Positions 3,581 to 42,712 of a stretch of 57,983 nucleotides of DNA are shown here, piece by piece (position 1 is the first letter of the stretch; the number at the start of each line of letters is the position of its first letter). The notes under the pieces were generated by a model. That model was not told where the DNA came from. It saw nothing but the letters and a program-made list of their open reading frames with translations, and did not search any database. A program made the translations under genes and the position numbers. The stretch comes from Atractiella rhizophila (taxonomy: Eukaryota): positions 1 to 57,983 of the forward strand of contig MU271473.1 of NCBI GenBank assembly GCA_021432655.1. The letters run 5' to 3'.

Positions 3581-5104
3581 TTGAGGTGCGTCGCTTTTAC
3601 ACCCGCGGATGGATGGGAGTTGATGAGGTGCTGTGCTGGACAGCGTCATTTTCTACTTGGTGGTGCATATCAGCAGTATCAGTGAGAATACCCGACAGAA
3701 GAGGACCCTGCCAACGTCTCATCCAAATCGACGTTGATTCTTCGTTTCGCGGTCCTTAGAACGCACCGGCCCTCACCTCTAGTCGCCTTTCCCATCACGT
3801 TGGGATCTCTGTGTCTCTCGGCTGTTGTCTACATAGGTTCATATTCCCGCCGTCCGATCAGCTACCTCGGCGGATCCAACTACCCGACTACGTCTTCGTA
3901 TCGTCCAGGCTGGTCGAAACGAAATTGTGACAAGTTCTGTTCAGTGCATACCGTACCTTTCGTCAGTGACAGGGTTTACTCGATATATTTGTGCCTTCTT
4001 CGAACTTCAGTACCTCAGTTGAAAGGGTTGATATCTTTGTACGTTCGGTGGATTCTACTGTGTGAAGGAGTACCTGTCATCTTCAGTTCCTCCAAACCTG
4101 TTCTGTGATCCATCGTGCTTGTTACGTTTGATCGACTTTTCTTCTTCATTCTTCATCGAAGCATTAACAACATTTTCACGCTGATTGACGACAACAACAA
4201 GCTTTCATAGAGGTTTTGCATCTCTTGCCGCTTCAAGCCCTTTTTTCATCGTTTCAACTCCTCCCAACCGCCTCAATCTACCTTTCAGTGCTCGATCAAC
4301 TATCGATCAGTACCTATTATTCGTCCGACCCTTCGCCTATCCCTTACTATACCTATCTATGTCTATTTGCACACGTCGCGTCGCTTGCAACCATTTCCGC
4401 TTAGTATCGGTATCGCAGAAACTGTCTTACTGTTTCTTGTTTTCCTTTTATCCCTTCCACTTCTTGTCCTTCCGATTCTTTTTCTGGAGCAATCTCCGCA
4501 CCTAGAGAGCAGACAGCAGATCATCTTCTGACTTTGCTTGACCTTTTCTTTCACTTACGTTCTGGCTCTGTTTTCCTTACTTCTTTCGTCTTTCTTGCAA
4601 ACCTTTACCGCTTCTTTTCAAGCTTTCAAGCCAGAGCTCGTATGCTTCAACATCTTCGCTCTCTTCTTTAAGTTAAATTAGAGTCAAGCGCACGTGTTTT
4701 TGTACGACCACCTCGCCTTGCTTTCCCCGTCCTCCTCGTCATGTCTTTGTCATGAGATGATTACGCCCCCCGCTTTTCTCCCGTACTCGCCCCGTTCTTC
4801 TTACCGCTTAGCCTGGATGTCATTTCTTGTTGGTAGGAGTAGGAATGGAGTTGTTGTGTTCGTGGGAAGCATTGCAGAAATGACAATTACGTTTATCACG
4901 ATTCACGGGTCCATTCCTTACCACAGCCTCGCGAGATCAGGGACATCAGTCGGGTAAAACTGTTAGCGATATTATTGACGGGTAAAGTCGAAGACTGATC
5001 CAAGAACCCATGATTACAGTACAACATCACATCTAACACGAAACAGCTTCAGTAAGCATGCGAAAAATGAGACTCTCTTCGTATATGTCGTGAATCGTGA
5101 ACCC

Positions 5105-8100
5105 CTACTCCTCCCCAGTCTTTGAGGAGACACCTTTGACAGTCGTCTGACTCGGACTCTTCTTAGCGTTGTCAAGGACATTTGACAGCCTATCCCTCCG
5201 CCCCTCAGCCTGTTGAACCTGCTTCTCCAATCCCCTAATGGTCTCATTGAGCTCCGAGACCCGCTCTTTCGCCCCTTGCCGCTCCCTCTTCACCTTCTCC
5301 TCCGCAGCCTTCAGACGACCCTCCAACTCTTTCAGTCGTGCCTCCCACTTCCCCTCAGCGACGGAAACTTTGATGCGCGCATCTTCCAGCTTCTCCTCCG
5401 CCATCGAGAGCTGGTTCTGCGTCTGATTCAGCTTTCTTTCGGCAGTCGAAGCTTTCGCTTGAAGAGCAGAAATCTTTGCCCCACTTCCGGGTTCGGTGCC
5501 ACTCGAAACACGGGATTTGAGTGAGGTGATCTGATGATTCAACTCGGTATTCGTGCCTCGAACCGCTTCGAGTTCCGCTGACTTGGCTTGCAAGCGTTGG
5601 CGCCATTGCTTCTGCATGTCGGTCGCTGTCTTGATGGAGTTTTCGAAACGGTCAAGTTGGCGGAGCCTTGCTTCTTGCTGCTTCTTCAGCGACCTGTACT
5701 GTGTATAAGTGACAAATGACGGGAGTTGGGAATACAACAACGAACATGAATTGATCAAAGAACTTGGTCTCCAGTTCCTTAGCTCGCTTCTCAAATGTCG
5801 TCCTCAAGTTTCCAATCCCCTTCATACGGTTCATGAGGTTATCCTGGAAGACATCGAAATTTGAGTATGGTTTCGCCTCTTGCTGTCCAGGTTTGCGCTA
5901 GAACGACACATCAATGCTTCCTCTGCCAGTAAAAGAAAATGACAAACAGGTGTCCATTCGGATCCTGCGATCTTGTCGAGGTATTGGTAAACAGTTAGGA
6001 GTAGAGTATTTCTCTCCGTCAGTTGGTCTCGGTATTGATGTTCGGCTTTCGTGAGGTTCTTCGTATCTGCGGCAAGCTGATGTTCAAGCGCACTGGCGCG
6101 CTCCTTGGCGACGGCGAGCTCAGTTTGTGCATCTCGAAGGGACTGAAGAACAAGTAATCAGCGAAAGCCCACGGGCAAGCTAGGAGGCAGTATACCTTAG
6201 TTGTTTCGTCCAACTTATCGGTAAGACTCAGCCTCGTCTGCGTTTGCGTTGCTAGCTGGCTGCTAAGATCTCGATTCTCCGAAGTCTGTCTCTCGATCAA
6301 TACAAGGAAATCGAGGAATAGTGAAACTGACGAGCGTAGAAACGGAGACACTCTTCTCTCTGAGATCTCGGTCTTTGACATCCAGCTCAGCTTGAACCTT
6401 TCTCAATTCCGCTTCGCATCGAGAAAGGTCTCCTTTGAGACGCTCCAGCTCAAGTTCAAGAGACAAACGCGCTTCTGAATGAGTTGCACCAAGTTTCTTC
6501 GACTCGTTCTCGATGGATTTCAGCCCATCTTGCACCTTTTGCAGATCAGCTTCACGGATCTCGAGCTTCTGTTTCGTCTGTGCGAAGTCAGAAAACACGT
6601 CCGAGAACGTGTTCGAGACNNNNNNNNNNNNNNNNNNNNNNNNNNNNNNNNNNNNNNNNNNNNNNNNNNNNNNNNNNNNNNNNNNNNNNNNNNNNNNNNN
6701 NNNNNNNNNNNNNNNNNNNNNNNNNNNNNNNNNNNNNNNNNNNNNNNNNNNNNNNNNNNNNNNNNNNNNNNNNNNNNNNNNNNNNNNNNNNNNNNNNNNN
6801 NNNNNNNNNNNNNNNNNNNNNNNNNNNNNNNNNNNNNNNNNNNNNNNNNNNNNNNNNNNNNNNNNNNNNNNNNNNNNNNNNNNNNNNNNNNNNNNNNNNN
6901 NNNNNNNNNNNNNNNNNNNNNNNNNNNNNNNNNNNNNNNNNNNNNNNNNNNNNNNNNNNNNNNNNNNNNNNNNNNNNNNNNNNNNNNNNNNNNNNNNNNN
7001 NNNNNNNNNNNNNNNNNNNNNNNNNNNNNNNNNNNNNNNNNNNNNNNNNNNNNNNNNNNNNNNNNNNNNNNNNNNNNNNNNNNNNNNNNNNNNNNNNNNN
7101 NNNNNNNNNNNNNNNNNNNNNNNNNNNNNNNNNNNNNNNNNNNNNNNNNNNNNNNNNNNNNNNNNNNNNNNNNNNNNNNNNNNNNNNNNNNNNNNNNNNN
7201 NNNNNNNNNNNNNNNNNNNNNNNNNNNNNNNNNNNNNNNNNNNNNNNNNNNNNNNNNNNNNNNNNNNNNNNNNNNNNNNNNNNNNNNNNNNNNNNNNNNN
7301 NTCCCTCTCCTCCGCTACTCTCCTCTCTCCACCGCTCCAACCTCTCCTCCAACCGCCTAGAGCTTGTCCACGCGAGTAATGAGTAAAGAGGAAAGGGAAG
7401 GAAGTAGTGGTAACACAGCGCGCAGCAGAAGTACAACACCACAACTGAACCTACTTAAGCTGTGTCCTTTTACGCAGGGAGGCTAGAGTCTGCTAGCGTG
7501 TCCAATGCTACGAGTGGAGGGCCTTATGCCTCTTTCTCTTCGACATGCTGCTCTAACTTCAGGAGTTTCTTCTCATACCCGGCTAATGTCTGGCTAAAGC
7601 TCGCGCATTTCGCCCTTGCTCTAGCTCTCGCTCGGCCGTCGTCCCGCTCCTCGTACTAACTGCTACCTCCCCTACCTCTCTCCTCGTCCCTCCTTTACCT
7701 TCTACAAGCAATAGGGGGTGAAAGTAAGAACTGAGATAAACGATTAACAACCCACGCAGCTTTCCTATAGTTACGCATGGCCCTATTCCAACGTCGCTAC
7801 CTCGACGCGGAACTCGTCTTCCTCTTCCTTTATCTGCTGGAGTACGTGCTGGAACTATACGCGCTAGTCCTTGTGCCTCTGCTCCACTTCGCCCGTCTTC
7901 TCCTAACCTTCCGACTCTAACTGCTCCGCGCCCGACGTTTCCTCCTTTACCGAGAGCAAGCAGAGGGAGAGAAGACGATGTGTAAGAATGAAAGCCTACG
8001 AGTTACAAACGAGCAAGCCCATACCCACTATCTACCACCTCCTAGCGCTTCTCCTCTAATTCCTTGAACACCTCTTCAAACTCCTTAACCTGCGTCAGAG

Positions 8101-9963
8101 TTTCCTCCTACGCCTAGCTAACCTTCTTAGAGAACGAGTTAACCTCCTCCGTGCTCGTGTCAACCGACTCTTCCTCTTCCTGAACCTTCTCTACCTCTTC
8201 CTTCGTCAACGCGAGTGCCTTCTAGACTTCTGACAGGCAAAAAGGGGGAAGAAAGTAGATGACGAAATGACTGTCTACAGTATCGACCCATTGGTTCGCC
8301 CTCCTCTCACTGCCCGACACCGCGCTTCCGCCCGCCTCACTCCTCCCATCCCACCTCGCATCGCTCAGTCTCGATCCAGCCCTCTTCCTCCTCCCCTCGA
8401 CCGACATCGACATCGCATCCTCCTCCTCCAGACGCTCCAACGCCTCATCCAATCTCGCCCTCGCGACCTCCAACTCAGCCGCAAGGTCCTCCCTCTCCTC
8501 CCTCTCCCTATCCAGCTCAACCAACAACCTCTCGACCTCCTCATCCACCTCTCCCTCACTCATCCTTCCCCCCCTCCTCATCTCCCTCACCTGCTCCTCC
8601 AAATGAGCCCTCGTCTCCTTCTCCCGCCCATAATCCCTCTTCCACCTCGCCACCTCCCTCTCCAACTTCCCCACCATCTCCTTCTCCCCCCCATGTCCCG
8701 GCCGCAACCGCTCCCCGCTCTTCTGCTGCTTCTGTAACGTCTCCAACGCCCCCTGCGCCTCGAGCAAAAGCCGCTTGTACTTCTTCATCTCCGTTCGTGC
8801 CGCTTGGAACTCGATTTTCAGCTCAATGTTCTCTTTCAGGGCGGCGTCGATCTGGTCGGGTGCGAGCTTGGCAAGTCGGTCTTCGAGGAAGAAGATCTTG
8901 AGCTTGAGATTGAAGTTTTCTTTCTTGACGGAGTCGATGACCTGTTTTTCACTGTGTTAGAATCTTGCGTATTTTTATGAGAGATGGAGGAGGAGGTCAG
9001 AAAGAATAATGTAGTTATCACAGCGCTGTCTCGAAGAAACATAGCTCAGAAATACCCCTTCAAATATTTGAGCGGTCATCAATTTGCTCCTCCTTCCCTC
9101 CAAAACCATCAACAAAGAAAAAAAAGACACACATTCTCCTGTTCCCTAAGCGTCATCTTATGCTTCCCCTTCCCCTTCCCCGCCTTCTCCTTACTCGCAC
9201 TCTTCAACCCATCGCTATAAAAGCTCTCCCCCTCCTTCTTCAACTCGAACCCATCTCCACTCTTCCACTCGCTCAGCTCCTTCAACTCCGTATCCCCCTC
9301 TCCCTCCCTATACCGATCCAAATCGCTCCCCAGCCTGCGGAGGGAGAGAGACGTTTCTTCGCCCACATTGAGGGAGTTGGATGGCGGCGACGGTTGCGGT
9401 TGAGCATGAATCGGCAATTTCTTCCGTCCACTCTCCTTCTCCTTCTCCTTCTCCTTCTCTTTCCGATCACGCTCGCGAGACTCTGGTTCTTTAGGGGCGG
9501 AAGGACGAGGCTGCCGAGCCTTGGTGAGGAAATAGGACGAATCGTCCTCCACACTCGTCGCCCGCGTCTCCGTCTCCGTCCCAACCCCATCGCCCGTACT
9601 CGCACTCGAATCCCCAGGCGCAGACACCATGACCGCGCTATTCCTCTTCGTCGCCGGCGGGCGCTCACCCAACAAATCCTCCCCCTCCTCCTCCATATCC
9701 ACATCCAAATCCTTCCCACCACCAGCCCCACTCATCTTTCGCATATGGCCATGCCCAAGCTCCTTCTCGCGCGCGCGGTTCCGCCGCTTCTCCAGCTGCG
9801 CGGCCTCGTACTCCTCCGCATCGAACGACTCGACGTGCGAGCCGAACGTGAGCTCGTTCCGGCCTAACGTGCGGTTCGGACGCGGCGTCTGGTTCGAGGG
9901 GTCGGGGTCGAAGGAGGACGAGTCGTCGTGGATGGTCGAGAGGCCGGGGAGGTACGTCGCCAT
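5105..9963 (-). CDS. mto1: Mto1/ApsB-like centrosomin-motif (CM1) coiled-coil protein, gamma-tubulin complex recruiter; multi-exon, spans the N-gap and the mirrored block
   Basis: Spliced CM1 motif MTLREQEN|VIDSVKKENFNLKLKIFFLEDRLAKLAPDQIDAALKENIELKIE (intron 8942-9132); long coiled coils; C-terminal WEARLKELEGRLKAAEEKVKRERQGAKERVSEL resembles the Mto2-binding domain. Middle exons lie in the mirrored block 7302-8300. Confidence 0.85.
6620..7301. other. Assembly gap (682 N) inside the Mto1-like gene
   Basis: Run of N. Confidence 1.
7302..8300. other. Reversed-but-not-complemented block 1, carrying Mto1 exons
   Basis: Complement read left to right gives GRGGDERREVARLERRLADLEQ|ENASLRSQTIAQVTMLTSRNTEKEKLYDEIEVLKEE...|DINAYRDKVAAMELRLEQKEKEIDDLMHDL...|MVEDREEEIKELVEKFEEL with four GT..AG introns, and continues the SGSERR frame ending at about 8301. 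Confidence 0.93.
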
Positions 9964-10175
9964 CTGCGTGGCCCAGTTGGTCGTTGGGCTGTGGATGTGA
10001 AGTGTGAAGGAAGGGAAGGGAAGTGCTGATGCTGATGATGGCGATCGTTGTTGGGCAAAACAAACGACGCGCCATCAGCATGCTGTCACGTGATGTCATC
10101 GGGATTATACTATTCAGGAATGTTATTGCGTGTTGAATGTTTGATTGCACTTTACAGCACAGGTGGGATAAGAAT

Positions 10176-11013
10176 TCAGTATGCGCGTCTATCCGCCTTC
10201 TTGCCCTTCAAGAACTCCTTCTCAGCCCTCTTCCTCCTCTTCCACTGTCCCTCCATCCTCCTCACCCTCTCCATCTTCTGCTCACTCGTCACACCTTCCA
10301 CCCATGCATCCAAGCGCAATTAACCATCACAGACAACTAGTGAGGATGAAGTAAAGAAGGGAGATGGCAGACGCACCACCCAATCCTCCCTCCCACGCCT
10401 CGCACATGATCCTCCACAACCGCTTCTTCGCCTCCTCCCTATTCCCCGGCTGCGTCCGATGCTCCTGTGCCGATATCTGCAGCGATCCGTACGGCGGAGG
10501 ACTCGAGATGTGGTGCGCCTACTTCAACCCTTTTGTTCAGAGCAAGGAATAAAAAATGTAGTGGAGTCGAAGTGACGGACGGTGTGTTGGAGATTGTACA
10601 TCACGTATGGTGGCACTGAGAGACGTGAGAGGGGGAGGACGAGGACCGCTCGCGTGTTCACTGTTGCGTTGGTGTGTGAGGGATGGGAGAGTGAAGGGAA
10701 GTGTTGCGAACCTTTGTTCACGTTTTGACCGCCGGGACCAGACGAGGTGGTGTATGAGAAGGAACATAGATCTGTACAGGAGACGTTAGAAACTTCATGC
10801 ACGCTCTGAATCGAAATTGAAGCATCGAGCTCCACGAGTAATTATTCTGGGAGTCAATATGCTAGATATACGAAAACGCGAAACCTCAATGGAAATCGAC
10901 TGCCATGTTATTCTGCCTTCCAACCTTGCGCTGATGTCTACCGAAACGCTTCTTGTTGGAATAAATAATTTGCAGGGCTTGGACAAAAGGAAAAAGAGAA
11001 GTTGCAACTTCAT
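10176..11013 (-). CDS. PTH4: Mitochondrial peptidyl-tRNA hydrolase / ribosome rescue factor, ICT1/Pth4 (RF-1 GGQ) family; multi-exon, start uncertain
   Basis: Spliced translation SYTTSSGPGGQNVNK|VNTRAVL...|...LQISAQEHRTQPGNREEAKKRL...|...RVRRMEGQWKRRKRAEKEFLKGKKADRRAY*: GGQ motif plus basic C-terminal tail. Confidence 0.85.
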
Positions 11014-11794: not shown

Positions 11795-13220
11795 TCACAC
11801 TGTAATCTTCCCACCGCTATAACATTCTACCGCGCCAGACGCGATAACATCAACCTGGGTCATTCGCCACCAGGGCAAAAAGCTGACAAAGCTCTTCCAG
11901 CAGAATTCCACGATTGACCCCATACTTCCGCGATCAGGGGAGGACGACTTCTTGGGGTGGGGGACCACCAGATGAGCAAGAAGCTTGCGTCCAAAGTGGG
12001 TGTCCTTTATAGCTCTGTACAGTCACCCCCTCCATTGTGAGCGCAAGTAAAGCTTTCTTGCTCATGTGGTCTTTCAGGCGCACATTGGGGACATTCAAGC
12101 GTTGGAGTGCTTTCCAGGATCCTCCTTCGCATCTCAGCCTGTAAAGACATTGAAGGGTCACTTTAGTCGCGAAGCTATTCGTGAACTCGACAGCCTCACG
12201 TCCTGTTCCGTCGGAGAAGAAGGTAAAATCCTGGATTGGACACGGAGAGAAGTAGAGGAGAATTTTAAAGATATCATGTAAGCCTAAGTACTGTAACATG
12301 TTAGTGAGGGTGAGGGATGTCAACTTTGAGGTGGAACGTCCTAGGAACCAGTCAAGTGGAAAAAGTATGAAAAGGTTCAGTGTCGCAGTCTGACAGGGAA
12401 CCCAGCAGCTGTAGAGCATCATTTCGAAGGGCCGGTCACGGAAATGACTGCTGCCATCGAGAATCAGCTCCTTTGCCTCGAGTTCCATGCCCGTCGCCGT
12501 CTTAAGCAGGGGGAAAGAAGAGAAAGTCCTGACAACCAATTTGTCCAGAGATTCCTTTCGATCCGAAAGCTCTTTCGCAGAGTGTCCTGGTATGAATGGA
12601 CTCTGGACCCTGATGTTCTTGATAACACTCGGAGAGGAACAGGCAGCTCGAAGAAGGTTGATGAACAAGTCATTCGACGGATCGGCTGGGTCCGTAACGT
12701 CATGGCGATGTACTATGAAGGAGAGGTCGAAAGCCGGACATAGGTTCAACGTCTCGAAGAGCTTGCGGACTTCAAAAGCCAACTCATCGTCAGTAATGCG
12801 TCTTTTGCGAAGATGTGATAGAAATTCAGGTTCGTCGTCCAGAAAAGTCAGCCCCAACATGCTGGCTTCCACCTCGAAGCAAATCTGTTGGATGGACAAA
12901 GGGTCAACTCGGTCAGTCCTGAGCAAATGTTGCAGAGTGACAGTGCAATTGTTGATAGTACGAGGGAGGGATTCAATGTCGTTCCATACCGAAAAACTAA
13001 TGCTCAGATATCTCACTTTTTGTAAAATATCGTTCGAAAGAGCTTGGAACTCTGCATCTGAATCCCACCACGTCGTGTTAAGGACCAATGTGCGAAATAT
13101 TTGGGAAAGTAGAGCTTGTCGTAAACCCCAGTTACAGCAACTGAGGTCGATACAGTCGGACACGGAGAGGTGACTACCGATTTCGTTTAGAAGCTCGTTG
13201 GGGAGGTCGAGGAGGGACAT
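11795..13220 (-). CDS. F-box protein family G, copy G1
   Basis: N-terminal F-box LLDLPNELLNEIGSHLSVSDCIDLSCCNWGLR; 428-aa ORF 11934-13220. Comparison with the paralog implies a +1 indel in a C-run near 11955, with the homologous C-terminus continuing to TGA 11795-11797. Confidence 0.8.
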
Positions 13221-13584
13221 TTTGAGTATGTTGTTTAGAAACGAGGTAGTAGATCCTCCCTCTTATAGTGATTGTAATGACATCCTGCTCTTTGTCCAGA
13301 GCCTTGTTGTCCTTGAGGAAGGACGTGGTAGAGCTAGATAAGAGCCAGATTGCCTTTGTACTGACCGCTCAAAGGAGTGTGAACGGACTCTTCCCTTTGT
13401 TCACAGCCTTGTTGTCCTTGAGAAACGACATGGGTAGAGTAACAAGGTTGTAGAACCCTTGGTAGGAAGTGTTCGATGTACTTGAGACAACCTTGAAGCG
13501 TTCCGAAAGTAGGTTATGAGATTTTTGACTGACAACTTGAAGAATTGGACAATGTAGCCATCACACTGCAAGCAGAAAGGAAAA

Positions 13585-19856: not shown

Positions 19857-20379
19857 TTTATCCCTAAAATACACACATATAAGCATCTCCTTTGCAATCG
19901 ACAGTTCAACTGGCGGAAACAAATAATGCAGCGAGGCTGATTCATGTCAGGTAGTATCAAACACTTGAATACCCTCAGCATGAATCTCCTTCGCGAAACA
20001 TTCCGAAAGGTCGACCTGACGAAGGCTATCCTTTGGTAGGCAAAGCTCGACCGTGTTCGCTCGTTGAAAGTCGCAACTATAACCCGAGTTTGGACCTAGC
20101 ACGGATCCAAATGGGGAGTGAGCCAGAAAGGGGGCAAGCGAACGGGAGTTGATACTGCTAAAAACACATAGTTGCATAAGATAATAGGAATACCATGAGA
20201 CATAAGGAAGCATACCTAAAAACAGCCAAACTAGTTGCACGTCTAACCGGTGCGAACAGAGTCAAGTACCAGTATCTCTGTGACAGAAATAAGCGACAAG
20301 AATGTGGACTAAGAAGGCCTAAGCCTACCTTCTAGTCCGGGTGCTCTTATACAATAACAGGGGCTCTCAAAAGGGGGAA

Positions 20380-21240
20380 TGTTAAGGAACCTGAAGAGTG
20401 CCCATTGGCATAAGTAAGATGTAAGAAACTAAAGGGCTACTCACCTCGCACACTACAACACTGCGTAACGATTAAAAAGACGCTACGAGTAAAAGACAGA
20501 TGGTGGTTGTGTGCGAGGGGGAAATGGCTGAGACAGATTGGAAATTGAACACGCAATCAGATAAGTACTTCAACATAAACATTGCAGATTATCAATACTT
20601 CTAACCCGTATTACAGTGACGGTCAGAGGTATGGTAGGTAGCGCAGATGGCAAACTTGAAATACAAGCCATGAGCTTGGGGTTAGACAACATCAGATTGT
20701 CAGGCTTGCCCCTACGCATTACCGAAATGCACCATCCGAGGTCACGTGACCTACTCTACCACGTCATGAGATCACGTGCCTACCCATCACCGCTTTGCTC
20801 ATGTCTGCGCTGTTCACCGCTTTCCCCTCTCTCAGGCGAATCGCCGCTCAGCAAACCTTATATATTTCGCCGGTCTGCACCGTCTCCATTTTTGCCTTAT
20901 TGTCCTTTCTCACTAGTACTACCCAGTATATCTTATTTCCGAGTATTCCCTTTATTACTCTCCTGATCTATCTATCTTACATGTTTCAAGAAACGTATGT
21001 TACAGTTTATGGCAGTGCTATTCCGCTTGTATATATAGATCGGAGAGTAGTAGAGGTGACCTTAGAGTATTCTCTTAGGTTTATCTCCACTACAGGTTAG
21101 TCTTCATGTCATATCATGCACTTAGGTTTATCTCCACTACAGACGCATCGCCCATCGGCGACCGCACATAGTGTCAGCCCTAATACAGATTTCCTAAGCA
21201 GGCATGTGTGCCAACCGCAAGATAGAACCCACTTCTGACA
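20380..21240. mobile_element. Candidate solo LTR (about 370 bp of its own sequence) hosting a nested family-B LTR
   Basis: TGTTA...TGACA ends with flanks GGGAA/AGGAA (4/5 match); single copy in the window. Confidence 0.35.
20698..21185 (+). mobile_element. Solo LTR, family B, copy 1
   Basis: TGTCAGG...CCCTAATA with perfect 5-bp TSD CAGAT (20693-20697, 21186-21190); homologous to 54851-55340, 24767-25164 and 57751 onward. Confidence 0.88.
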
Positions 21241-21288: not shown

Positions 21289-23648
21289 TCTTCGCCGTCG
21301 CCAGTCTCACCCATTCGGTATTCTACTCCGGTGTCAGTGCACGTCCTTTGCAATTTGCAAAGAGATGAATGGCTTGGGAGAGGAATGTTATCTGATATAC
21401 TACATCAATGCTTACTTGAGAACTCTCCATTAGGTTCAAAGGAAATATTTACCTACAGCTATCAGTACTGGAAACAATGGAGTCACTCACGCTAGAGATC
21501 ACGGAGCAGGTGTAGGAGGTAGAAATGCTGGGGTGAAGGAGGTTCAATCTGTTTTGAACTTCCCTGTTCACTCTGTCAAAAATTCCGATAAGTGGAGGAA
21601 CCGACTGACGTTGTGGCATCGGTGCCACTGTCTGGTGTCAGCATTGGACGTCAATACAAGAGTAGTGAAGACTGACAAACGGAAAGCATCTATTGTTAAT
21701 AAATATCGAGAGGTCATCACATCCACGTCAAGCAATAGTGCTGGAAGGCTGTCTGGAATGCAGATTCCATGTTCCATGGTTTCGCTTAGTACCTCACAAA
21801 GGCTTGCCAGTTCATTCTCTAACTCATCCCAGCCTGTAAGCTCAAGAGTGAGCGAATGACGTTGACGATTGCTCATATTCCTTTGGCGTTATGGTAGGGA
21901 TGGAAATTTAGGACAAGGGGGAGGCGGTTTATATGCATCAATAGAAACAACGGTTGGGGAGAAAGAAAGCAGCCTGTAAAGATTCCTTTGTACCATAGCT
22001 GCCTTTGTTGACGGAACAAGACCCCTTTGTTCACGGTCAAAACATTTCTGCATATTCTCCACAAGTTGGATTTTTCACCTCTCCCTGTTGAGAAAGAATT
22101 AACTGATATGCGCAGGCAAATCATGAAGATGCAAGGTTCATGCATTTAGTGAACGAGGGCGGAACAGCATTGCACAGAAAGGAGCAAGGGAAGTTTCAGC
22201 CCGCATACTTGTTCTTCCTTTCACGATGAGATATCAAGCGAATGAGGTGTCATTTCTTTTACCACCTTATTTTTTTGGATGTGAAAAAAGCGAACCAAAA
22301 CGGAGCAAATTGGATGTGCAATGAAGAAATGGATGGAGCACAAATGGAAAGCTCTCACCAAGGTGTCACATCTCTACTAAGCGGATTATAGTGAGAAGAC
22401 CCATATGTCATGTTGGATTTATATTCCAACACCAGTGTCACAACATTCAGAGCATCAGAACTGTAATGACTAAAGCATCTGATGAAATGAAACCAGTCTG
22501 CAGACTAGGGATACATTCATGCACCATGCATCAAGTCCCTTGTTGTCGTCTAGTTTTCCTTTCAAAACTTTGCTACAGCATGCCCGGTACTCAGGCCGAT
22601 TCGAAAGACAGACCTTCATAACCCATCGTCTTTTGCCATAGTTGCACATTCACTTTCGTCCTCCTCACAAACCCGGACTCCTCATGGTGGCTTCATTCTC
22701 AGCGTCCTGTTTCTACACTTCTTCACAACCATCCTCCTCTGTTCCTGTTCCGATCCTGATCCCCAAAGAAGCAGGCAATAAATGTTGAGTAACTGAACCA
22801 TTCCACGATGTACGTCATAGCTATGACTTCAATCACATCAGATGTTGACAGTGTGTGTAGAAAGACTGATTGTGAAGAGTCTTCGAGCCTCATTCGTACC
22901 CAGTGAGGACAAAGGACACCAGCTTCTTTCAGTGTGTGATAAGTTGAAAAGTTGAACGGGGGCCGTTCTTAAAGTTGGCGTGCGGCAGTGAAGACCACAA
23001 GCTGACTCTGCTATCCATTCCTGTCCCGTCCCTAGTCACCCATTTTCAATGTTGTGTTTGACGTAGAGGATATGAACTGTGCACCTTGTTCTCATGTGTC
23101 CTTTAGAAAGCGAGTGGAAAATGTGAACATCTTCAGTGTCGCTCCTCTCAACCCTCCCGAATCTATATCCAGTAATCCCCTTCAATAACCCCCAACTCTC
23201 TCAACACACTTCTGGCCATACATATCTCTTCATCACACCATGCTCCAAAGAACAGCTCGATCGTCAACTGGCGTCCTCTCGTCGTCTTCACCTTTTTAGC
23301 TTCATCCACGGTCCACGGTATCCCCCTCCTCCTCCATCCCTCTATCCCCAAAGAACCAGCGGATGAAATCCGAGAATATAAACCCTGATCCCCAGTCCAT
23401 CACACAGTAACAAACATCTATACTCGCTATTGCTTTTGCATTTGTGAGTGTGGAAGAACTGGGGGGAAACGAGCCTTGAAGTTTCCTCACCACCGTCAAG
23501 GTAGACTTGGGTGAGATGTTTGAGGTGTGCGAAGTCGAGCGGTTTGGGAAGGATGGAGATCTTTCCATCAGGTGAGTAGGGTGTGAGTGTTATCGTGAGG
23601 TCTTTCAGCAGAGGCGACAGACAGGAACCTGAGACAGCGGGAGGGAGC

Positions 23649-24766
23649 TGTTGAGACTAGGATTCTTCCTATCACACTGGGAAGTGTACATTGCAGAAGA
23701 AACTCACCTAGGATTCTTCCTATCACACTGGGAAGCATGAAGGGAACAAATCCTTGTGAGGGAGGTATATGTGTATTTTACATTGTGGGGCATTGCGGGG
23801 CACTCATGTGACCGTGGTGTCACGGTATGTCGCTTATCTCCAACACTCCCACTCGACAAAACAGTGATGCTGAATCACAAAATCAAAAACTTGTAAAAAT
23901 CAAAAACTTGTAAAAATCAAAAACTAAGAAGTTGTTCTCCCACTTGATGAAGCAGTGCTTGGTTTTGACACCAAAGATAGTAAACTGCAGAGATATTCGT
24001 GTTTCCCCTTTTCTAATGGTTTCATGAAGATGTCTGCAATCATTTCTGTTGTGGGACAGTATCTGAATCGAGGATATTGTTCGCTTGTGCCTCTCCGATC
24101 CAAAATAACTTGATGTCCACATGCTTCATCTGTGAAAAATGTTCTGGGTCATGTGCATTTTCAAGAGCTGCTTTGTTATTGTTAAATATCGGTAGTGCCC
24201 GTTCTTACTTTCTTCCCATTTCTTCAAATAAACTCCGATACCAAACTCCTTCTACTCCACCATGTGTCATCGCTAAGAACTCGGCATTTCCTGTGGAGAG
24301 TGCTACTCCATCTTGCCGTTTGCTACTCCAACTGATCGGTCCTTTGCCTAAGAAGAAGGCAAAACACGACGTTGATCCTCGCGTGTCTAAGTCTCCGGCA
24401 TAATCTGCGTCTGTGTACCCACAGAAAAACGGACGGGAGTCCCCTTCACTTTGTAGGCCATATTCCAAACAATAATGTTTCGTGGTTCGCAGGTAACATA
24501 AAACCCTCTTAACTGCCTCCCAATGCTTAGGCCCTGGATTAGAAGAAAATTTCCTGAGGTGACCCACAACCCAAGCTATGTCAGGGCACGTTGCAATAGC
24601 AAGATAGATTAAGCCACCTATCGCATTTAGATATGGGACCTTTTCCATGTATTCAATCACTTCTAGTGTGTTTGGGCAATCTGCCTTTGAGAGCATGCTC
24701 CCTGAGTCGTAAGGAGTGGAGACTGGACGACCTTCATCTGTCATATGCATCAAGGTATCGATGTTG
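23649..24766 (-). mobile_element. 3' fragment of a second Copia family (LTR family C 23649-23845, PPT, RT/RNase H remnant)
   Basis: 197-bp TG..CA LTR, PPT GAGTGGGAG on the minus strand; ORF 24205-24753 with TCPDIA, YTDADYAGD, ISWSSKRQ; 17-bp tandem repeat at about 23879-23924. Confidence 0.9.
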
Positions 24767-25164
24767 TGTCAGGTTTGCATCTTACTCAAATCGGCGCCCG
24801 TTCGCCAGATTACATCTCCTATCGCCCATTTGTGTTCCCTGCGAAACGGCGCCGGTCGCCACTCTGTGTCTCCCGTTGCCCATTCGCCCATTTATGCCTA
24901 TCCTCCTCTTATTAACTCCACATAATCCCACCGTCACTTCCCCCTTTTAGTTCTCTTACACGTTTCGTCTGCTCTTCTCTACACTCTGTGGTAGTGCTAT
25001 TCCGCTTGTATATATAGATCAGAGAGTAGTGGAGGTGACCTTAGAGTATTCTCTTAGGTTTATCTCCACTACAGGTTAGTCTTCATGTCATATCATGCAC
25101 TTAGGTTTATCTCCACTACAGACGCATCACCCGTCGGCGACCGCACATAGTGTCAGCCCTAGCA
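24767..25164 (+). mobile_element. LTR family B variant (different 5' half, same 3' half)
   Basis: TGTCAGG...CCCTAGCA; about 24990-25164 is near-identical to 21011-21185; no TSD. Confidence 0.8.
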
Positions 25165-25274
25165 GCCTTTGATGGGATTTTCGTATTTATCGAATGATAA
25201 AACCTCGAAGATGAGAGAGAGGATCTCAGGGGGGTAACTGTGTGACAGTGCATAAACTAATACTTGTAGTTCGA

Positions 25275-26616
25275 CACCGAAGAAAGCTTTTCGGAAGGTG
25301 GCCTGCCGCTAAAATCAGCAGGCGACCTTCCGGTTACGAGCATGCTACCTGTTGAAAGTCCATCAGGCGACCTGATTGCGGCGATTTGTCCAATCATCAG
25401 GTCGCCTGCTGCCAGCCATCAGCTATATTGCAAGAACCTGATGGCTGGTGGCAGGGGACCTGCACGTACCTGATGGGAAAATCCTGCACTGGCTACGGCT
25501 CCTCCCTTCCCCAATTTCTTTACACCTCTTACATGCCCTGGGACACCTGTGAGGATTATGTTGCGATTACGAATGCATTGTACAATTTAGTGTCATCTAA
25601 ACGTGGGAACTCATCCTTATCAGACCCATTCCTTGGCTGACTAATGAATCAGCTCCATCTGATGTGATAGAGATTACTCATGAATCATACTTGCGAACAT
25701 ACTAAGCTATATCCCTAACTCATAAGCAATTAGCATGGCCAGAAATCACTCAAGCAAAGGAAAAACATACCTTCTGAGCAGGTAAAAAGATACCTAACAA
25801 ACTCCCATCTCATCAGTCTCCGGTGCAATTTGGAACCAAGAAGAGAACAAACAAAGATACTTACATTAACCTTCATACCTACCACGATCTTTCCCTTCCA
25901 AGAGCCTTTCTTCCACATCATTAAGTAGCAATAACTCGGGCATGCTTCTTCAAGCTATCACACCGCTGGTGTGGAGGACCTTGCATTTGAGAGTTCAAGG
26001 CAGGGCTTGTTGTCTTGCTGTCCGCCAATACATTAGAAGGCAAAACAAAGCTGTCTTTTGAACATTCATAGAAGGAACCTATACCAACTTGTTGGTCTCA
26101 TCGGAGTTCTCCTCACCCAGAAAAGATGCAAGTCGAAGCATTGTCGCCAGCCACACCACTGTTTTCGATGCTGTGTGCCACCCAATTTTCCTGTTCTTCC
26201 CTACCACTAACAAGCACACGATGCACCTTCAGCGGTTTCCCAGCTCACTCTGTCGTTGAGCATCTTCTCCTGCTTGGCACAAAGCCCCATATCTTTCTTT
26301 ATTCACTTTCGCCAGTAGTGGTCCATTACGAAGCGGATTTCACAGCAGACACATCTGAGTACCTGAGAGGCATTATGGAGTGGGTGTATGACTTGGTGAG
26401 GGACGTGTGAGTACGATTGTGGCGTATTCGTTGGATTGGATCGTCGATGTCGTTTGGGTGCCTAAAAACTACCCTAACCCTACTACCTCACGACCTTCGC
26501 TAAAGGAAAAATGCTAAGTCCAAACCTGCATGTTGGTGGTAAGCAGGAGACCTGACGGCAAAATAGAGTTCCTGCGTGTAGCCATCAGGTCACCTGCCGA
26601 AAGAGTTTCCACGGTG
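25275..26616. mobile_element. Non-autonomous TIR DNA transposon (CACCG termini, TCGA target duplication)
   Basis: Imperfect TIRs of about 30 bp (CACCGAAGAAAGCTTTTCGGAAGGTGGCCTG vs CACCGTGGAAACTCTTTCGGCAGGTGACCTG); TCGA on both sides; the empty site aligns with paralog F3; subterminal CAGG-N3-CCTG repeats. Confidence 0.82.
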
Positions 26617-26829
26617 TCGAGCTGGGGAAAGGGAGAGTGGGATGGTTGTCCCCACAGCGTTTACCTCTACACATTTCTGAAGCTTCTTGGTTAGTACACG
26701 ATACTTAAGGGCTGGGAATGTTGCGCAACTGATTGGTTTGGTTGCTGGAGTTCTTGTCGACTTGAAGTCACAGTGCTATAAGTTCAAAGATACAATTTGC
26801 CCCTCGAAGACAATGTAGGCTTGAAGATG

Positions 26830-27850
26830 TAGGCTTGTCCCAAGGGTTCAAGGAATGGTACCATTGTTATACCACATCTTCAATCTTCGATGGTGCCGCT
26901 TTCTGTTCTGTTAAGTAGTCCATCGTTGAAGGCATGGGTCGTCGTCAACCGTAAGAACGACTCGAGTGACACTCAAACGGTGATCGGCTTCACTACATTG
27001 TAGCACATTTGGACAGAATTTGATGCCTTAGGCGCTTTTGCTGGGAATCAGCAGAATCATTTGCATAGCAGAAGACATCCGTAATACACACAGTCAGCAT
27101 CCTCCTTACAAACCTGATCTCGTCATACCCTGAAGCTTCCGAAATAGTCATCAACACCAAATATACTCCCTCCCATCCATCGCCATCATCACCCCTATCC
27201 CTCATTTCCTGATCCCCCTAAAACCAGCAGATAAACACTGGGAAACCGACTCACGCCCGCAGCAGGAAATAATTATGACCTATACCACATTGTGTTCTAA
27301 TAGTGCGCATGGACAGACTTGGTGCGGATGGGGTCCCAAGATTGCTTATAAGAATAGAGCATGAGGTGTCAAGTACGAATGACTTCTGTGAGGAAGTTAT
27401 GTTGAATAGTAGGGATGGACGGAGGGATGGCAACGTTCCGAACACATTCCAGCCGTGTTCCTAGTCACCAATTCTCAATGCCGTGTTAGATGGAGAGAGA
27501 TACGAACTGTGCACCTTCTCATCATGTCTTCTCTTGAACGCGAGTCAAATCTGATAATTCCCTGCATCACCACTCCCCACCCTCCCAAACCCAGGTATCT
27601 TCATTCTCCTCACTCACCCCGAACTCTCTCAACATGCTCCTTGCCTTGCATATCTCGTCCTCAAGCCACCCTCCAAAGAATAGCTGAACGCTCAAGTCAC
27701 GTCCTCTCGTCGTCTTCACCTTTTCAGCTCCATCCACCATATCCCCCTCCTCCTTCATCCCCCTGTCCCCAAAGAACCAGCAGATGAACTCTGAGAATAC
27801 GAACCCTGTGAATCTCCAGTCCACCACACAATACCGAACATCTATGTGTC
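26830..27850. repeat. Segmental duplication with about 48660-49675 (3' end and downstream flank of family F genes)
   Basis: caagggttcaag.aat.gt.ccattgttata...ccgtaagaac.actc.ag...taaacactgggaaac.gactcac is colinear in both. Confidence 0.8.
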
Positions 27851-29332
27851 TTATTGCTTTTTGCATTTGTGAGGGTGTGGAAGAACTGGGGGGAAACGAG
27901 GTTTGAAGCCTCCTCACCACCGTCGAGTTCGAGGTAGCTGAGATGTTTGAGGTGTGAAAAGTCGAGTGGACTGGGTAGGATGGAGGTCTTTCCATCAGGC
28001 GAGTAGGGGGCGAGGGTGATCTTGAGCCAACCTAGAAGAGGGGGTAGACAGGAGCCTGAGATGGAGGGAGGGAGAGGACACAGTTCGGAGAGACGCAAAT
28101 CTGTGAGGGTGAGTGGGAGAGAGAGCGATGGGAGAGGTGGGTATGCGTGAAGCTGTAGGGAGTTGAGGTTAGATGATAATTGAAGGCCGCGTGATGTCGA
28201 AAAGGCAGAGTCCTCTACGTTGAAAGCACAGAAGGCTTTGATCCTGTCACCCATCCTCCACATAAAATTCTCGACCTCATCCTTCTTCCACTTTCTCCAA
28301 CCTTGCCCTTCAAACATTACGTCATCCAACCTCGTCAAGCTTTCAATCGCATGCAACACAATCTTCGCCTCCTCTTCATTCCACAATGCACACATGTACA
28401 AGTACGTAACATTCGGCAGCCCAGCGATTGACGTCTTGCGCCATCTCAACGCTGATGTCATCGTCAAGCCCACTCTCAAACCGGAGGGTTGTCCGCAAAC
28501 GCCCAGCATTAGGATAAGCTGTCAAACGAGCATGGAACTCTCCTGCACAGAAACATCTTCACTGAAATATGGGACTGAAACAGCCTTCCAAAGCTGACAG
28601 ACCTCAGAAAGTCGCTCGAAGGAAACGAGATATCCAGTACCTTCTATAAGCCTTTCAGATTCATCGAATGAAAGAATCTCGAAGATGAGTGAGAGGATCT
28701 CAGTAGGAAGGTGTGTGATACTGCATAAACTAATACATATAGGTCGAATTGTGGAGAGGGAGAGTTGGATGGTTGTCCCCAGACCGGTGGATGGATTGGT
28801 TGGCTCCTCCCATTCCTTGAGAGGAATGAAACACTGTTGATCCTTGGAGTATACGGCGACAGGTTGGAAGATGAGCTGAGAGCGATTCTCTGCAAGATGA
28901 AATGTGCATGTGAAGGGTTTCAGAGACATGTCCTCCAAATCCACGGATGCAAGACTTTTGGTATCCCCAAAAGTTACCATAATACTTTTCTCCTCCAACG
29001 CAATGCAAAGAATCATTGCACCGTCGGGTTCTCCTTCACTTTTCTGACCTTCTAGAGAGAAGTAGGACGATTTCGATGGACCATACTTGAGCTTCCAGAA
29101 TCGAATAGGTAAGACGAACGTGATCTGGAGCGTGTGAATTGATGGAGGTAGGCGAGAAATGAAAGAGGGAAGAATGGAGAGGTGGATTGGACTGCCATGT
29201 CGTAATGTTACAGGGGTTATGAGATGAGCCAGTGCGATTGACTCTGTCCCCTGACTGTCCTTCTGTAAAACTGATGTTTTTCTCCTTTTGATTCTGGGAG
29301 AGAAGACGCCGGACTAAACCCCACGAGTCCAT
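27567..29332 (-). pseudogene. Family F copy F3, full length but frameshifted (or with sequencing indels)
   Basis: Consecutive ORFs 29036-29332, 28522-29016 (THLPTEILSLIFEIL..VCQLWK), 27724-28509 (WNEEEAKIVL) and 27567-27995 (FICWFFGDRG) each match part of F4. Confidence 0.8.
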
Positions 29333-29903
29333 GTTAAACGAGATAAATGAGGGAGAAAGATCGATCCTGCCTGTGGCGCAATAGTGCGTTCTCCAACTTC
29401 ACCCATTTCGACGCACCCACTGCAATGATCAGAATTCGAAATCGTGAGGATGATAGCAAAATCGTTTGAGGGAGTCGGTGGATTAGGGAACCGTCTGGGC
29501 TGCTGTTGGGTGGGTTGAAGTCCAGGTGGAAGGAAGTATTTGTTCGGACATTGAACGCTTTAGCAACTAACATCGTGGAAGCTCTTTTGGCAGGTGACCT
29601 GATGGCTCCACACAGGAACTGTATTTTGCCGTCAGGTCTCCTGCTAAATGAAAATGGTAGCTCCGTATCTTTACTCGTGGTCCCCAATACAATCACGTAT
29701 AAGCGAATGCGAGCAAAGATAAGTTGAACGCGGAGAGTCCCTAACTTCGGCGTTCGGCATGAACATCACAACCTGACTCCGTTATCAATTCCTGTCCTAT
29801 CCTAGTCCCCATTTTTAATCCTGCGTTAGAACATAGAGTGTTATGAAGTTCGCACCTTCCTCTCGTGTCTCCTTTCGACCGCAGGTGGGAAATATGCGTA
29901 TCT

Positions 29904-31629
29904 TCAGCGTCGCTCCTCTCCACCCTCCAGAACCCAGATCCAATCATCCTCCTTGCTCACCCCAAACTTACTCAGCGTGCTACTGGCGTGGCATATCTCT
30001 TCCTCAAGCCACTCTCCGAAAAATAGCTTAACCCGCAACTCGCGTCCTCTCGCCATTTCCAACCTTTTCCGTTCTATCCTCCGTATCCAACTCCTCCTTC
30101 AGCCCCCTGTCCCCAAAGAACCAACAAATGATGTCTGAGAATACAAATCCAGCGTATTCCCAGTTTACCACACAGTAGCGAACATCTATGTCCTCTATTA
30201 CTTTTGCATTTCTGAGGTTGTGGAACAGCTGGGCGGGTACGAGGTTCGAAGCGTCCTCACCACCGTCGAGGCGGAGGAAGGTCAGATGTTTGAGGTGTGA
30301 AAAGTCGAGCGGACTCGGTAGGATGGAGAACTTTCCATCAGGCGAGTAGGGGGCGAGTGTCATCGTGAGATCTTCTAGGAGAGATGGTAGACAGGAGCCT
30401 GAGACGGAAGGAGGGAGGGGGCACAGATTGGAGAGACGCAAACCCGTGAGGGCGTGTGCGAGGGAGAGCGATGGGAGAGGTGGGTACCCATGAAGGCCGA
30501 GGTATTTGAGATCAGAGGATAATTGAAGGCCTGGTGATGTCGAACAGGCAGAGTCCTCTACGTCATAAGCACGGAAGAATCTGATCCTTGCACTCATCCT
30601 CCACATGAAGTTCTCGATCTCCTCCTTCTTCCATTTTCTTGAAACCGAATGCTCACTTCCAAAAATCACTTCTTCCAACATCGCCAAGCCTTCGATCGCA
30701 TCCAAAACAATCTTCGCCTCCTCTTCATTCCAAAATGCATCCATATACACGTGCGTAACATTTGGCGAGCCGGCGATGACCTCTCGCGCCATGTCAACAC
30801 TGATGTCCTTGTCAACCCACGTCTCGAACTGAAGACCTTCCCACAAACGTCCGGCACCTGAATAACCTTTCAAGCGGGCATGCTTCTCCTTCACAGAAAC
30901 GATTCCAAACAAATATGGGACTGAAACAACCTTCCAGAGCTGACAGACGGCAGAAAGTAGGGTGAAGGAAACGAGATGTTTATTAGAGATACCTTCGATG
31001 GCCGATTCGTCTTCACTGAGTGAGAGGAACTCGAAGACGAGAGACAAGAGCTCGGGAGGTAACAGTGCGATAGCGCAGATCCTAACACCTGGAATTCGAG
31101 TCGGGGAGACTGAGAGTTGGATGAAGGTGCCTAGATAAGTGGATTGGATGGGTGAAGATTCCCATTCATTGATAGGAACGAAACGCCGTTCGGCCTTGGA
31201 GTATAGCGCGACGGGGTCGAAGATGATATCGGCCTGGGAGCGGTTATATGGAAGATTAAATGTGCATGTGAAGGGTTTTACGTCCGAGTCATTTGAATCC
31301 ATGAATGCATAATCCCCAAAAGTTGCTTTAATACTTTCCTGCTCCAACCTGATGCAAAGATTCAGTGCGCCGTCGGGTTCGATTGCATTTTCGAGGCATT
31401 CCAGTGAGAAGAAGGACGATTTTGACCTCCAGACCGCAAGAGGCAAGATAAAGCTGATCCGGAGCGTTTGAACTGATGGAGGTAGACGAGCAAGAAAAGA
31501 GGAAAGAATAGAGAGGTGGATCGGAATGCCATGGCCTAACGTTACTGGGGTAATGAGATGGACCTGTGCGATTGACTCTGCTCCCTGATCATCCTTCCGT
31601 GAACTTGAAAATGTTTCCTCCGCAACCAT
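29904..31629 (-). CDS. Family F copy F4, F-box/LRR-like protein
   Basis: 533-aa ORF with LLPPELLSLVFEFL..SAVCQLWK and Leu-rich repeats (LKYLGL, LTGLRL, LEDLTM, LTFLRL); a +1 indel near 30060 shifts the family C-terminus (KLFFGEWLEEEIC...), which ends at TGA 29904. Confidence 0.85.
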
Positions 31630-33660: not shown

Positions 33661-33855
33661 CTCTGCGCTCTCAAGGCTTTTTAGCCCTCCGTTGATCCAT
33701 CCCTGGCCTGGCCTCTGTTTCGCCCTTCCTTGCTCCTGCTTACCCTCTGGTTACACCATGGTTGGAAACTGTAATATTATGTCAGCAAAGCGATGCCGAT
33801 GGTACACATCCCTGGCCTGTTGCTGATTTTGAAAGGTTAACGTATGCTTAACCAG

Positions 33856-34741
33856 ATGCAAGTCGACGAGGCCGCCGCCTTTATCACTCTGCTGGATTGG
33901 TCCCCAATGGAACACAGTCATCTTCCAAAGCCGGAAGAAGTCTTCAGATCAAAAGTGCTTTCGGACCAGAGCACGATTGCAACTGTGAGGTTAGTCGACG
34001 GGCGAACTGTTGCGAAGTACGGCAGAAAGGTCTTTGTTCAAGAGGCCAACGCGATGATACTGGCGGCCAGCATCGGTGTGCCAGTCCCAGAGGTATGTTC
34101 TTTTAACTCTTACAAGGAAGCTTCATTGATGCGTGGTTCCGCGTCAGGTATACGGAGCCTATCGATACAACGAGCGGACCTTCATCTTCATGGCTTTCGT
34201 ACCTGGGGAGACGCTTGAACTTGCGTGGGACGGGATGACAGCCGAGCAGAAGGATCGTCTCATACTTGACCTTCGAGAAACACTTGCCTCTCTCCGAAAA
34301 CTCACCTCAACCTACGTCGGTGGCGTAAACAGGGCGCCGTGTGGTGACCCCCTTTTCATGTCCCATCCACACGTTGGCCCGTTTGAAAATGTCTCTGAAT
34401 TTTGTGACGGCCTCTTTGGCAACTTCTTGCATGTCGCCAGAGGATCAGCACATTCCCATCGCTACTTGCGCCGCTTGCTAAGGCGTTACGAACAGTACCC
34501 CATTGTGTTCACCCATGGTGACCTTTCACCTCGCAACATTATCGTAGGCGACGATCACACCTTGCGTGCCATAATCGACTGGGAAATGTCAGGCTTCATG
34601 CCAGCTCCTTGGGAATGGGTGAAAGCCGAGTTTGGGTCAAGAGAAATGCCAGCAGAATGGTTTGCATTGATGGATAGGTGGTTGGAACCTTATGATAAAG
34701 AAGCTCTTATGGACCGTCGATTCAGGATTTCTCTGGGTTGA
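33856..34741 (+). CDS. APH/choline-kinase-like phosphotransferase (APH-A), two exons
   Basis: VAKYG..EANAM..VPVPE|VY..FIFMAFVPGETL; Brenner motif FTHGDLSPRNIIV; IIDWEMSGF; intron 34093-34147. Confidence 0.9.
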
Positions 34742-34768
34742 GGAATATAGAACAGTTTATTTTACAGT

Positions 34769-35166
34769 TTATTGAGCATTTTTCAATGCAGGGGCAAATT
34801 CACAATAGACAAGCAATTCCAGATCAAATGGCTGTAGTATGATTTCCAGGATTGAATTCCAAACAAGAGAATATGCTTCTGATATGGATGCTTGAACCCA
34901 TTCCCAATGGACAGGCATGAACCCCGCTTTCCGCCAACCAACTACTGCACTTAGTCTCCCTCCTTGCATGATTATATGTTGGCGTTGAAAGTTCCCATGA
35001 GAGTTTGTCTTCACTACAAGCGATGAGGCGGCGATGTGAAGCTCTGAAGAAAGGATCTTGTCCGTTGTCGATTTCGATGGCACTCATGATAGCATTGTTG
35101 AAGTCTTCGATGTTGAATATGGGCCCGCGTTGCCATAATTCGCAAGATAAGTAATCGGCGCCTTGT
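34769..35166 (-). pseudogene. 3' half of a diverged APH paralog (APH-B), convergent with APH-A
   Basis: SHGNFQRQHIIM..AVVGWRKAGFMPVHWEWV aligns to THGDLSPRNIIV..AIIDWEMSGFMPAPWEWV; both catalytic Asp are replaced; the 5' half is absent. Confidence 0.75.
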
Positions 35167-42687: not shown

Positions 42688-42712
42688 NNNNNNNNNNNNN
42701 NNNNNNNNNNNN
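42688..42712. other. Assembly gap (25 N)
   Basis: Run of N. Confidence 1.

Follow-up and report, generated by a model that had tools for sequence, protein, structure and literature searches.

An Mto1-type gene of Atractiella rhizophila whose middle is displayed reversed but not complemented

The window analysed here, a stretch of 57,983 nucleotides from Atractiella rhizophila, displays both ends of a microtubule-organiser gene in the usual way and raises the question of what became of the middle of that gene. The first-pass annotation had proposed that about 1 kb beside a gap carries the missing part as 'mirror' DNA, that is, DNA reversed but not complemented, and that an informatics artefact was responsible. 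The mirrored block is confirmed to exist and lies well outside what chance could produce, although its description needs minor corrections, and the attribution to an artefact is supported by the orientation of public contigs as well as by the homology of the block once it is reversed.

The gene and its mirrored middle

The real gene is an ordinary intron-bearing gene of the Cnn_1N/Mto1 type, located on the minus strand. Its first exon lies at 9109-9963 (minus strand), where residues 1-294 of P0001, the closest named protein and itself from Atractiella rhizophila, match 9963-9115. The upstream exon with the CM1 motif (8298-8956, minus strand) is displayed normally and includes the Cnn_1N domain PF07989 at 8303-8956 on the same strand (E 5.3e-23; 81.4 bits, cut-off 28.5). 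The C-terminal, downstream exons (5105-6592, minus strand) are likewise displayed normally, are covered by public contigs as far as 6592 and contain the Mto2_bdg domain PF12808 at 5105-5803, also on the minus strand (E 1.2e-5; 26.0 bits, cut-off 22.3). From family membership only, it follows that the product is predicted to recruit gamma-tubulin complexes to organising centres. Between the two normally displayed parts stand a mirrored piece of 27 bases (6593-6619), gap 1, which consists of 682 N (6620-7301), and mirror block 1, which consists of 996 bases (7302-8297) and directly adjoins gap 1 at its left end. Gaps, mirrored pieces and the features within them are given here without a strand.

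Mirror block 1 yields the sense strand of the middle of the gene when its complement is read from left to right; equivalently, the displayed 7302-8297 is the opposite strand complemented but not reversed. Inspection of six frames bore out the claim that 7302-8300 as displayed has no useful open reading frame, and the coiled-coil peptides described from the complement reading were recovered unchanged. In tblastn searches with 120 proteins of the Cnn_1N family, which covered both strands and applied the same low-complexity filter to the displayed and the complement-read block, 100 of the 120 proteins matched the complement reading, and all 140 HSPs (140/140) lay on its forward frames in an order collinear with the proteins. 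None of the 120 matched the displayed block on either strand, nor did the displayed block have a blastn match elsewhere in the window. As displayed, the match to P0001 stops at residue 457 (8297), in keeping with the expectation that protein matches would be truncated here; when the block is reversed in silico, the tblastn match extends from residue 457 to residue 691. The homology of the reversed block to Mto1/ApsB proteins, proposed as a check in the first-pass annotation, is strong, with stretches of 98/98 and 80/80 residues identical to P0001 in addition to the 100 matching proteins. P0001 contains the residues of the block, which implies that this sequence is present in its natural orientation in a different assembly, made from the same organism or a very close one.

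In the complement reading, the block comprises four and a half exons of the Cnn_1N/Mto1-type gene. The exon that ends at 8298 continues through 7302-7368 and is followed by intron 1 (7369-7466, 98 nt), exon piece 2 (7467-7704), intron 2 (7705-7764, 60 nt), exon piece 3 (7765-7956), intron 3 (7957-8032, 76 nt), exon piece 4 (8033-8233), intron 4 (8234-8284, 51 nt) and the start of the next exon (8285-8297), where the P0001 model also resumes. All four introns have GT..AG ends, as the first-pass annotation had stated. Introns 1 and 2 are fixed by exact matches to P0001, of which residues 408-505 are matched 98/98 across the junction 8298|7302 and intron 1, and residues 479-558 are matched 80/80 by exon piece 2 after the removal of one base. 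Introns 3 and 4 are inferred from reading frames and GT/AG positions and, for intron 3, from homologue HSPs that begin at 8033. Exon piece 3 agrees with P0001 at 98.6% over 74 residues, and its frame holds 99 of the 140 HSPs of all homologues, most of them within 7765-7956. Exon piece 4 is an open frame to which 18 homologue HSPs correspond (8033-8236). The public P0001 model translates intron 3 (7957-8032) out of frame.

Two single-base frameshifts had been reported within the block. One of them stands as the sole coding frameshift: a short homopolymer at 7578-7582, within exon piece 2, contains one base too many. The second proved to be a difference of two bases near 7981-7990, inside intron 3. 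In addition to this 2-base indel and the extra base, about six substitutions near 7992-8258 distinguish the block from the source of P0001, so that flipping one stretch of the same assembly would not account for it.

Boundaries, public contigs and other mirrored pieces

The left edge of mirror block 1 is where it had been placed, the block joins the upstream exon in frame as described, and the right end requires a small correction, from 8300 to 8297, with the join at 8297/8298 rather than 8300/8301. This boundary is set by the public contigs, which first fit the window at 8298, and the junction residue of P0001 requires 8299 and 8298 read normally together with the complement of 7302. The exons within the block succeed one another from left to right, opposite to the direction of the gene, so that it is the 7302 end that adjoins 8298 and the 8297 side that, in true order, adjoins gap 1.

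Contigs from four public runs (X1-X4), representing three samples, reach these junctions. This evidence is at the level of assembled contigs rather than raw reads; the loose ends, 30 letters only, were compared with the reversed letters of the window by eye. To the left of 8298 the contigs agree with the reverse of 7302-7331 at 28 of 30 letters in X3, 27 of 30 in X4 and 20 of 21 in both X1 and X2, and a further, non-repetitive loose end in X1 and X2 matches reversed 7348-7377 in all of its letters (30/30). The displayed orientation, whose presence across the junction would have made the block a biological matter, is thus not carried by independent contigs, in which the reversed string continues instead. 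Since the contigs run left from 8298 as the reverse of the block, the real DNA has the natural orientation. Window base 7302 is T, compared with A in all four runs; this mismatch, which pure reversal leaves unexplained, could reflect an allele or an error in the sequence. Depth is zero in all four runs in bins 6593-8185, and the uncovered part is not counted as evidence.

The 27 bases that border gap 1 on its left (6593-6619) are likewise reversed in place without complementing. Behind 6592, loose ends in X1 and X2 equal the reverse of this piece at 26 of 27 letters by eye, and that in X3 agrees at 18 of its first 20 letters, beyond which it diverges in the manner expected of a spliced form.

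Mirroring can also be detected independently of homology, by a forward-versus-mirror likelihood ratio of k-mers (k=4, leave-one-out) for which 52 ordinary windows of 996 bases served as the control. The control windows gave a mean of +17.3 (sd 8.5, minimum +2.2) and no negative value (0/52), compared with a score of -31.0 (z = -5.7) for mirror block 1; the 27-base piece, at z = -0.7, is too short for this test. A scan of the 58 kb revealed two strong mirror-like segments (-32.8 and -53.1), both starting at N runs. Four weaker segments (13104-13515, 20001-20494, 24891-25349 and 26449-26708; -7.9 to -8.7) were treated as noise; reversed, they matched nothing, and comparison of their open reading frames was unconvincing. 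In 46001-48000 the longest frame in the mirror reading (281 aa) exceeds that in the displayed sequence (240 aa), and this candidate was rejected given that both frames are of low complexity and the k-mer score is positive.

The second strong segment corresponds to mirror block 2 (42713-44635, right end approximate), which spans about 1.9 kb and borders gap 2, a run of 25 N at 42688-42712, on the right. Its two halves have k-mer ratios of -29.6 and -22.8 (z -5.5 and -4.7). When reversed, block 2 matches other displayed sequence of the window with E = 0: 34026-35167 at 96.8% of 1155, 33757-34339 at 97.4% of 583 and 23648-23846 at 92.1% of 202. The reversed block is an odd composite of three places, with a putative join to 44636, and this counts against the artefact reading. 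The interval 44636-45405, between block 2 and a paralogous stretch, had no match either as displayed or reversed. At the left edge of gap 2, the 37 bases of 42651-42687 (z -0.9) are too short for the k-mer test and had no short match when reversed. All three detected mirror pieces adjoin N runs (3/3). Kinase-like paralogue sequence is also hidden by mirroring in the window.

Origin of the mirrored pieces

Almost certainly, 7302-8297 is true genomic sequence that was reversed without complementing at a gap edge, the 27 bases and the ~1.9 kb were treated in the same way, and the cause lies in software, with no biological mechanism involved. Probably, gap-edge extensions or gap-fill pieces were handled by software separately from contigs, and one half of a reverse-complement operation was lost for the pieces so handled. 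The error may be located in the public record or may have been introduced in preparation of the window. Each piece is reversed in place, an arrangement incompatible with an ordinary inversion and also with a reverse-complement step applied case-sensitively to the whole scaffold.

The latter operation, the example offered by the first-pass annotation, in which the complement table is case-sensitive and lower-case letters, masked or from gap-filling, are reversed but left uncomplemented, is very unlikely. Complement-table errors of this kind occur in home-made scripts. An error of this type would, however, leave the piece complemented in place with its right end adjoining 8298, whereas it is the left end, 7302, that is found there: the loose end before 8298 is the reverse starting at 7302, and 6593-6619 behaves alike. 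A piece-wise variant of the case-sensitive error is possible and falls within the software explanation preferred here.

That the block is real genomic mirror DNA and the gene truly disrupted is scarcely credible. The display in the record is all that speaks for it, and against it are the contigs from three samples that show the reversed string at the junction, the residues of the block encoded in P0001 and the position of the pieces, which adjoin N runs in every case. Strands are joined in antiparallel fashion in replication as well as in repair and recombination, and no such process can therefore reverse a strand without complementing it; we also know of no enzyme chemistry that yields a reversed, uncomplemented strand, which counts further against this possibility. 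An ordinary inversion, or a misoriented (reverse-complemented) contig beside the gap, is just as improbable. Draft scaffolds often contain misoriented pieces beside gaps, which counts in its favour, but no protein of the 120 matches the displayed block although tblastn covers both strands, ordinary k-mer statistics would be expected where z = -5.7 was obtained, and displayed block 1 is without a blastn match elsewhere while the reverse of block 2 does match. Chance, whereby the complement of a CT-rich stretch of low complexity would resemble coiled coil by accident, can be dismissed: the flanks do have a CT-rich composition, and matches among coiled-coil proteins are loose, but the 98/98 and 80/80 residues with GT..AG introns, the 30/30 match of a non-repetitive loose end and the failure of the displayed block (0/120) under the same low-complexity filter all stand against it.

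Consequences for sequence data and comparison with known systems

The reversal of gap-edge pieces by software offers no new biology, and its value lies in the quality control of sequence data. At least 2.9 kb of the 58-kb window is sequence present in no organism, and one gene model is broken by the mirroring. Neither displayed strand is natural, so that ordinary alignment finds nothing and a mirror piece resembles orphan sequence; such pieces are invisible to standard similarity searches because only the two natural strands are tested. In the k-mer mirror test the affected pieces were clearly set apart from all ordinary windows (52/52), and the test is a cheap screen for curators. It is tentatively suggested, at somewhat less than even likelihood, that the fault is systematic in one gap-closing or scaffold-finishing pipeline and affects many gap edges here and possibly other public assemblies. 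If it were pipeline-wide, false orphan DNA on the scale of kilobases and gene models truncated at gap edges would result, and the forward-versus-mirror k-mer ratio would detect instances throughout the genome. In the parts of the literature consulted, no description of such an artefact in assemblies was found.

As in Mto1 of fission yeast, ApsB of Aspergillus and centrosomin, the gene in the window has an N-terminal Cnn_1N (CM1) motif. It shares a C-terminal Mto2-binding (MASC-like) region with fungal members of the CM1 family, and its long coiled-coil middle aligns with that of basidiomycete members once the block is un-mirrored. The gene itself has no unusual trait; only its display in the record sets it apart from intact Mto1-type genes, with the middle mirrored, part lost in the 682 N, and one extra base. 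Draft scaffolds with a misoriented contig or gap-fill are similar in that wrong orientation beside a gap breaks gene models, but a misoriented contig is natural DNA of the other strand, whereas neither strand of the mirror block exists in the organism. Errors made by hand, in which a sequence is reversed instead of reverse-complemented, are known from submitted sequences. The mirror pieces show the same string operation; unlike those hand-made reversals of whole entries, they would be the product of a pipeline that affected several gap-edge pieces within one scaffold.

The Mto1-type gene around gap 1

A gene on the minus strand, starting near 9963 and ending near 5105, spans a run of 682 N at 6620-7301 (gap 1). 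Its exon at 8303-8956 (minus strand) carries the centrosomin CM1 motif (PF07989, Cnn_1N, E 5.3e-23) and the Mto2-binding region (PF12808, 26.0 bits, cut-off 22.3) lies in its last large exon at 5105-5803 (minus strand), which is the architecture of fungal Mto1/ApsB proteins. The CM1 exon served as query in a word-index search for a family set (E <= 0.001), and the best 120 of 121 proteins were used. Among these 120 of 121, the best match to the CM1 exon is P0001, a 755-residue hypothetical protein with the source label Atractiella rhizophila, and the remaining matches come from rusts and mushrooms.

The first-pass annotation read 7302-8300 as the middle of this gene in mirrored form, with letters reversed and not complemented, and this observation is confirmed. 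The stretch as displayed holds no sensible ORF, and the coiled-coil peptides reported from it are present in its complement read left to right, with residues that are also found in P0001. The mirrored piece is real, but its right boundary lies at 8297/8298 and not at 8300/8301; mirror block 1 is thus 7302-8297. In tblastn searches, the match of P0001 to the window as displayed ends at residue 457 (base 8297), and with block 1 reversed by script it extends to residue 691; 98 of 98 residues are identical to P0001 across the junction 8298|7302. Homology of the Mto1/ApsB type is likewise evident in the reversed block, since 100 of the 120 family proteins match complement-read block 1. All 140 HSPs fall on its forward frames and form three groups in collinear order, at about 7467-7600, 7759-7990 and 8033-8236, and none of the 120 proteins matches either strand of block 1 as displayed.

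Exon and intron limits were taken from a spliced comparison of complement-read block 1 with P0001. The four GT..AG introns proposed earlier were recovered in the complement reading: introns 1 (7369-7466) and 2 (7705-7764) are placed by the comparison itself, and introns 3 (7957-8032) and 4 (8234-8284) are deduced from the reading frames and, for intron 3, from homologue HSPs that start at 8033. One of two proposed single-base frameshifts stands: a short homopolymer at 7578-7582 is one base too long, and without that base 80 of 80 residues are identical to P0001. The second is a 2-base difference from P0001 inside intron 3. The public model of P0001 reads through intron 3, then loses the frame and reaches 755 residues in all (7957-8297 and the gap), whereas family members mostly have 1000-1300 residues (among 120 of 121). 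An error in the P0001 gene model itself, unrelated to the mirroring, is probable.

Public contigs across the junctions

A word search with 7302-10300 listed seven runs, the best of which contained 0.52, 0.50 and 0.41 of the words. Assembled contigs of four public runs (X1-X4), from at most three samples as X1 and X2 are one sample, were compared with the window over 5000-10300, and at the junctions their letters were compared by eye with reversed window letters. At the right junction, where independent data might have carried the displayed orientation, contigs agree with the window from 8298 rightwards (two contig records) and continue with reversed letters instead. Left of 8298, X3 and X4 agree with the reverse of 7302-7331 at 28 and 27 of 30 letters, respectively, and over its last 21 letters X1 and X2 agree at 20. 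Another X1/X2 loose end equals the reverse of 7348-7377 (30/30), a stretch that is not low-complexity. Position 7302 is the only one at which pure reversal fails in every run: the window has T, reversal predicts T beside 8298, and all four runs have A.

At the left junction, X1/X2 loose ends behind 6592 equal the reverse of 6593-6619 (26/27), and therefore a third mirrored piece of 27 bases lies left of gap 1. In X3, 18 of the first 20 letters behind 6592 agree with the reverse and later letters diverge as in a spliced form; un-mirrored, 6593-6619 comprises the end of an intron followed by six codons at the start of the following exon.

Contigs of X3, and partly of X4, omit 5691-5744, 5894-5948, 6142-6196, 6285-6332 and 8939-9131 (46-191 bases each), with ends CT..AC, or GT..AG on the minus strand. 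These omissions are as spliced Mto1-type transcripts would give. X1/X2 contigs show many single-letter differences from the window, such as 12 over the 390 bases of 6200-6589, X3 is closer, and the Glu-Lys repeat in exon 1 is shorter in P0001 than in the window; the public data therefore represent at least two strains or haplotypes of the organism.

Composition and the second mirrored block

Homology-free evidence came from a strand-symmetric 4-mer Markov model trained on the window, by which each stretch was scored against its letter-reversed copy. Trained leave-one-out, the model gave 52 ordinary windows of 996 bases a mean of +17.3 (sd 8.5, minimum +2.2, 0/52 negative), and block 1 scored -31.0 (z -5.7). 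A maximal-segment scan of the window found only two strong negative segments, about 6583-8279 (-32.8) and about 42651-44620 (-53.1), each with an N run at its start; the next segment scored -8.7.

The second segment corresponds to mirror block 2 (42713-44635, right end approximate), right of an N run of 25 at 42688-42712 (gap 2). Reversed, it matches displayed 34026-35167 on the opposite strand (96.8%, aligned length 1155) and displayed 33757-34339 (97.4%, 583) and 23648-23846 (92.1%, 202) on the same strand; differences are mostly substitutions, the longest match having 23 mismatches against 3 gap openings. The whole window reversed against itself gave no matches beyond those of block 2. In mirror reading, block 2 contains APH-type ORFs of 203 and 202 residues, against at most 130 residues as displayed; its displayed copy at 34130-34741 encodes an APH-family phosphotransferase (PF01636, E 2.6e-12). 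Un-mirrored, the block runs in order from a copy of 23648-23846 through a copy of 33757-34339 to the opposite strand of 34026-35167, an in-frame fusion to which one APH-like gene contributes the front and its convergent paralogue the back. This composite may represent a genuine copy that has diverged, a different haplotype or a chimeric fill.

Two convergent paralogues of the APH family (PF01636) occupy 33757-35349, the one on the minus strand being broken across frames as displayed, and 33811-34025 has a 92% copy at 45406-45622 on the other strand. A repeated element at 23016-23647 has copies at 27445-28074, 29773-30417, 49313-49679 and 53743-53963 (71-77% identity); the element ends on the right at 23647, just where the stretch resembling block 2 begins.

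Origin of the error

All mirrored pieces are reversed in place: the end shown at the gap in fact belongs next to the contig. The mirrored feature itself is not biological, and the earlier interpretation as an informatics artefact is supported. The pieces would have been processed singly, for instance when gap edges were extended or gaps partly filled, with one half of the reverse-complement operation lost: a string would have been reversed if taken from the plus strand, or complemented but not reversed if taken from the minus strand. Extension sequence of lower quality would agree with the odd gap lengths (682 and 25) and, in block 1, with the homopolymer indel and the extra substitutions. Reverse-complementing of a whole scaffold with a case-sensitive table is excluded, as it would leave a piece complemented in place. 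An ordinary inversion is ruled out by the in-place reversal, and would show in a two-strand search. In-place reversal fits separate handling of the pieces. The fault may originate in the public record or in preparation of the window.

The case is of low biological interest and has some quality-control value. In the portion of the literature open to full-text search, no description of assembly artefacts of the reversed-not-complemented kind was found. The same string error occurs in hand-submitted sequences. As a CM1-family member, the gene in the window is normal.
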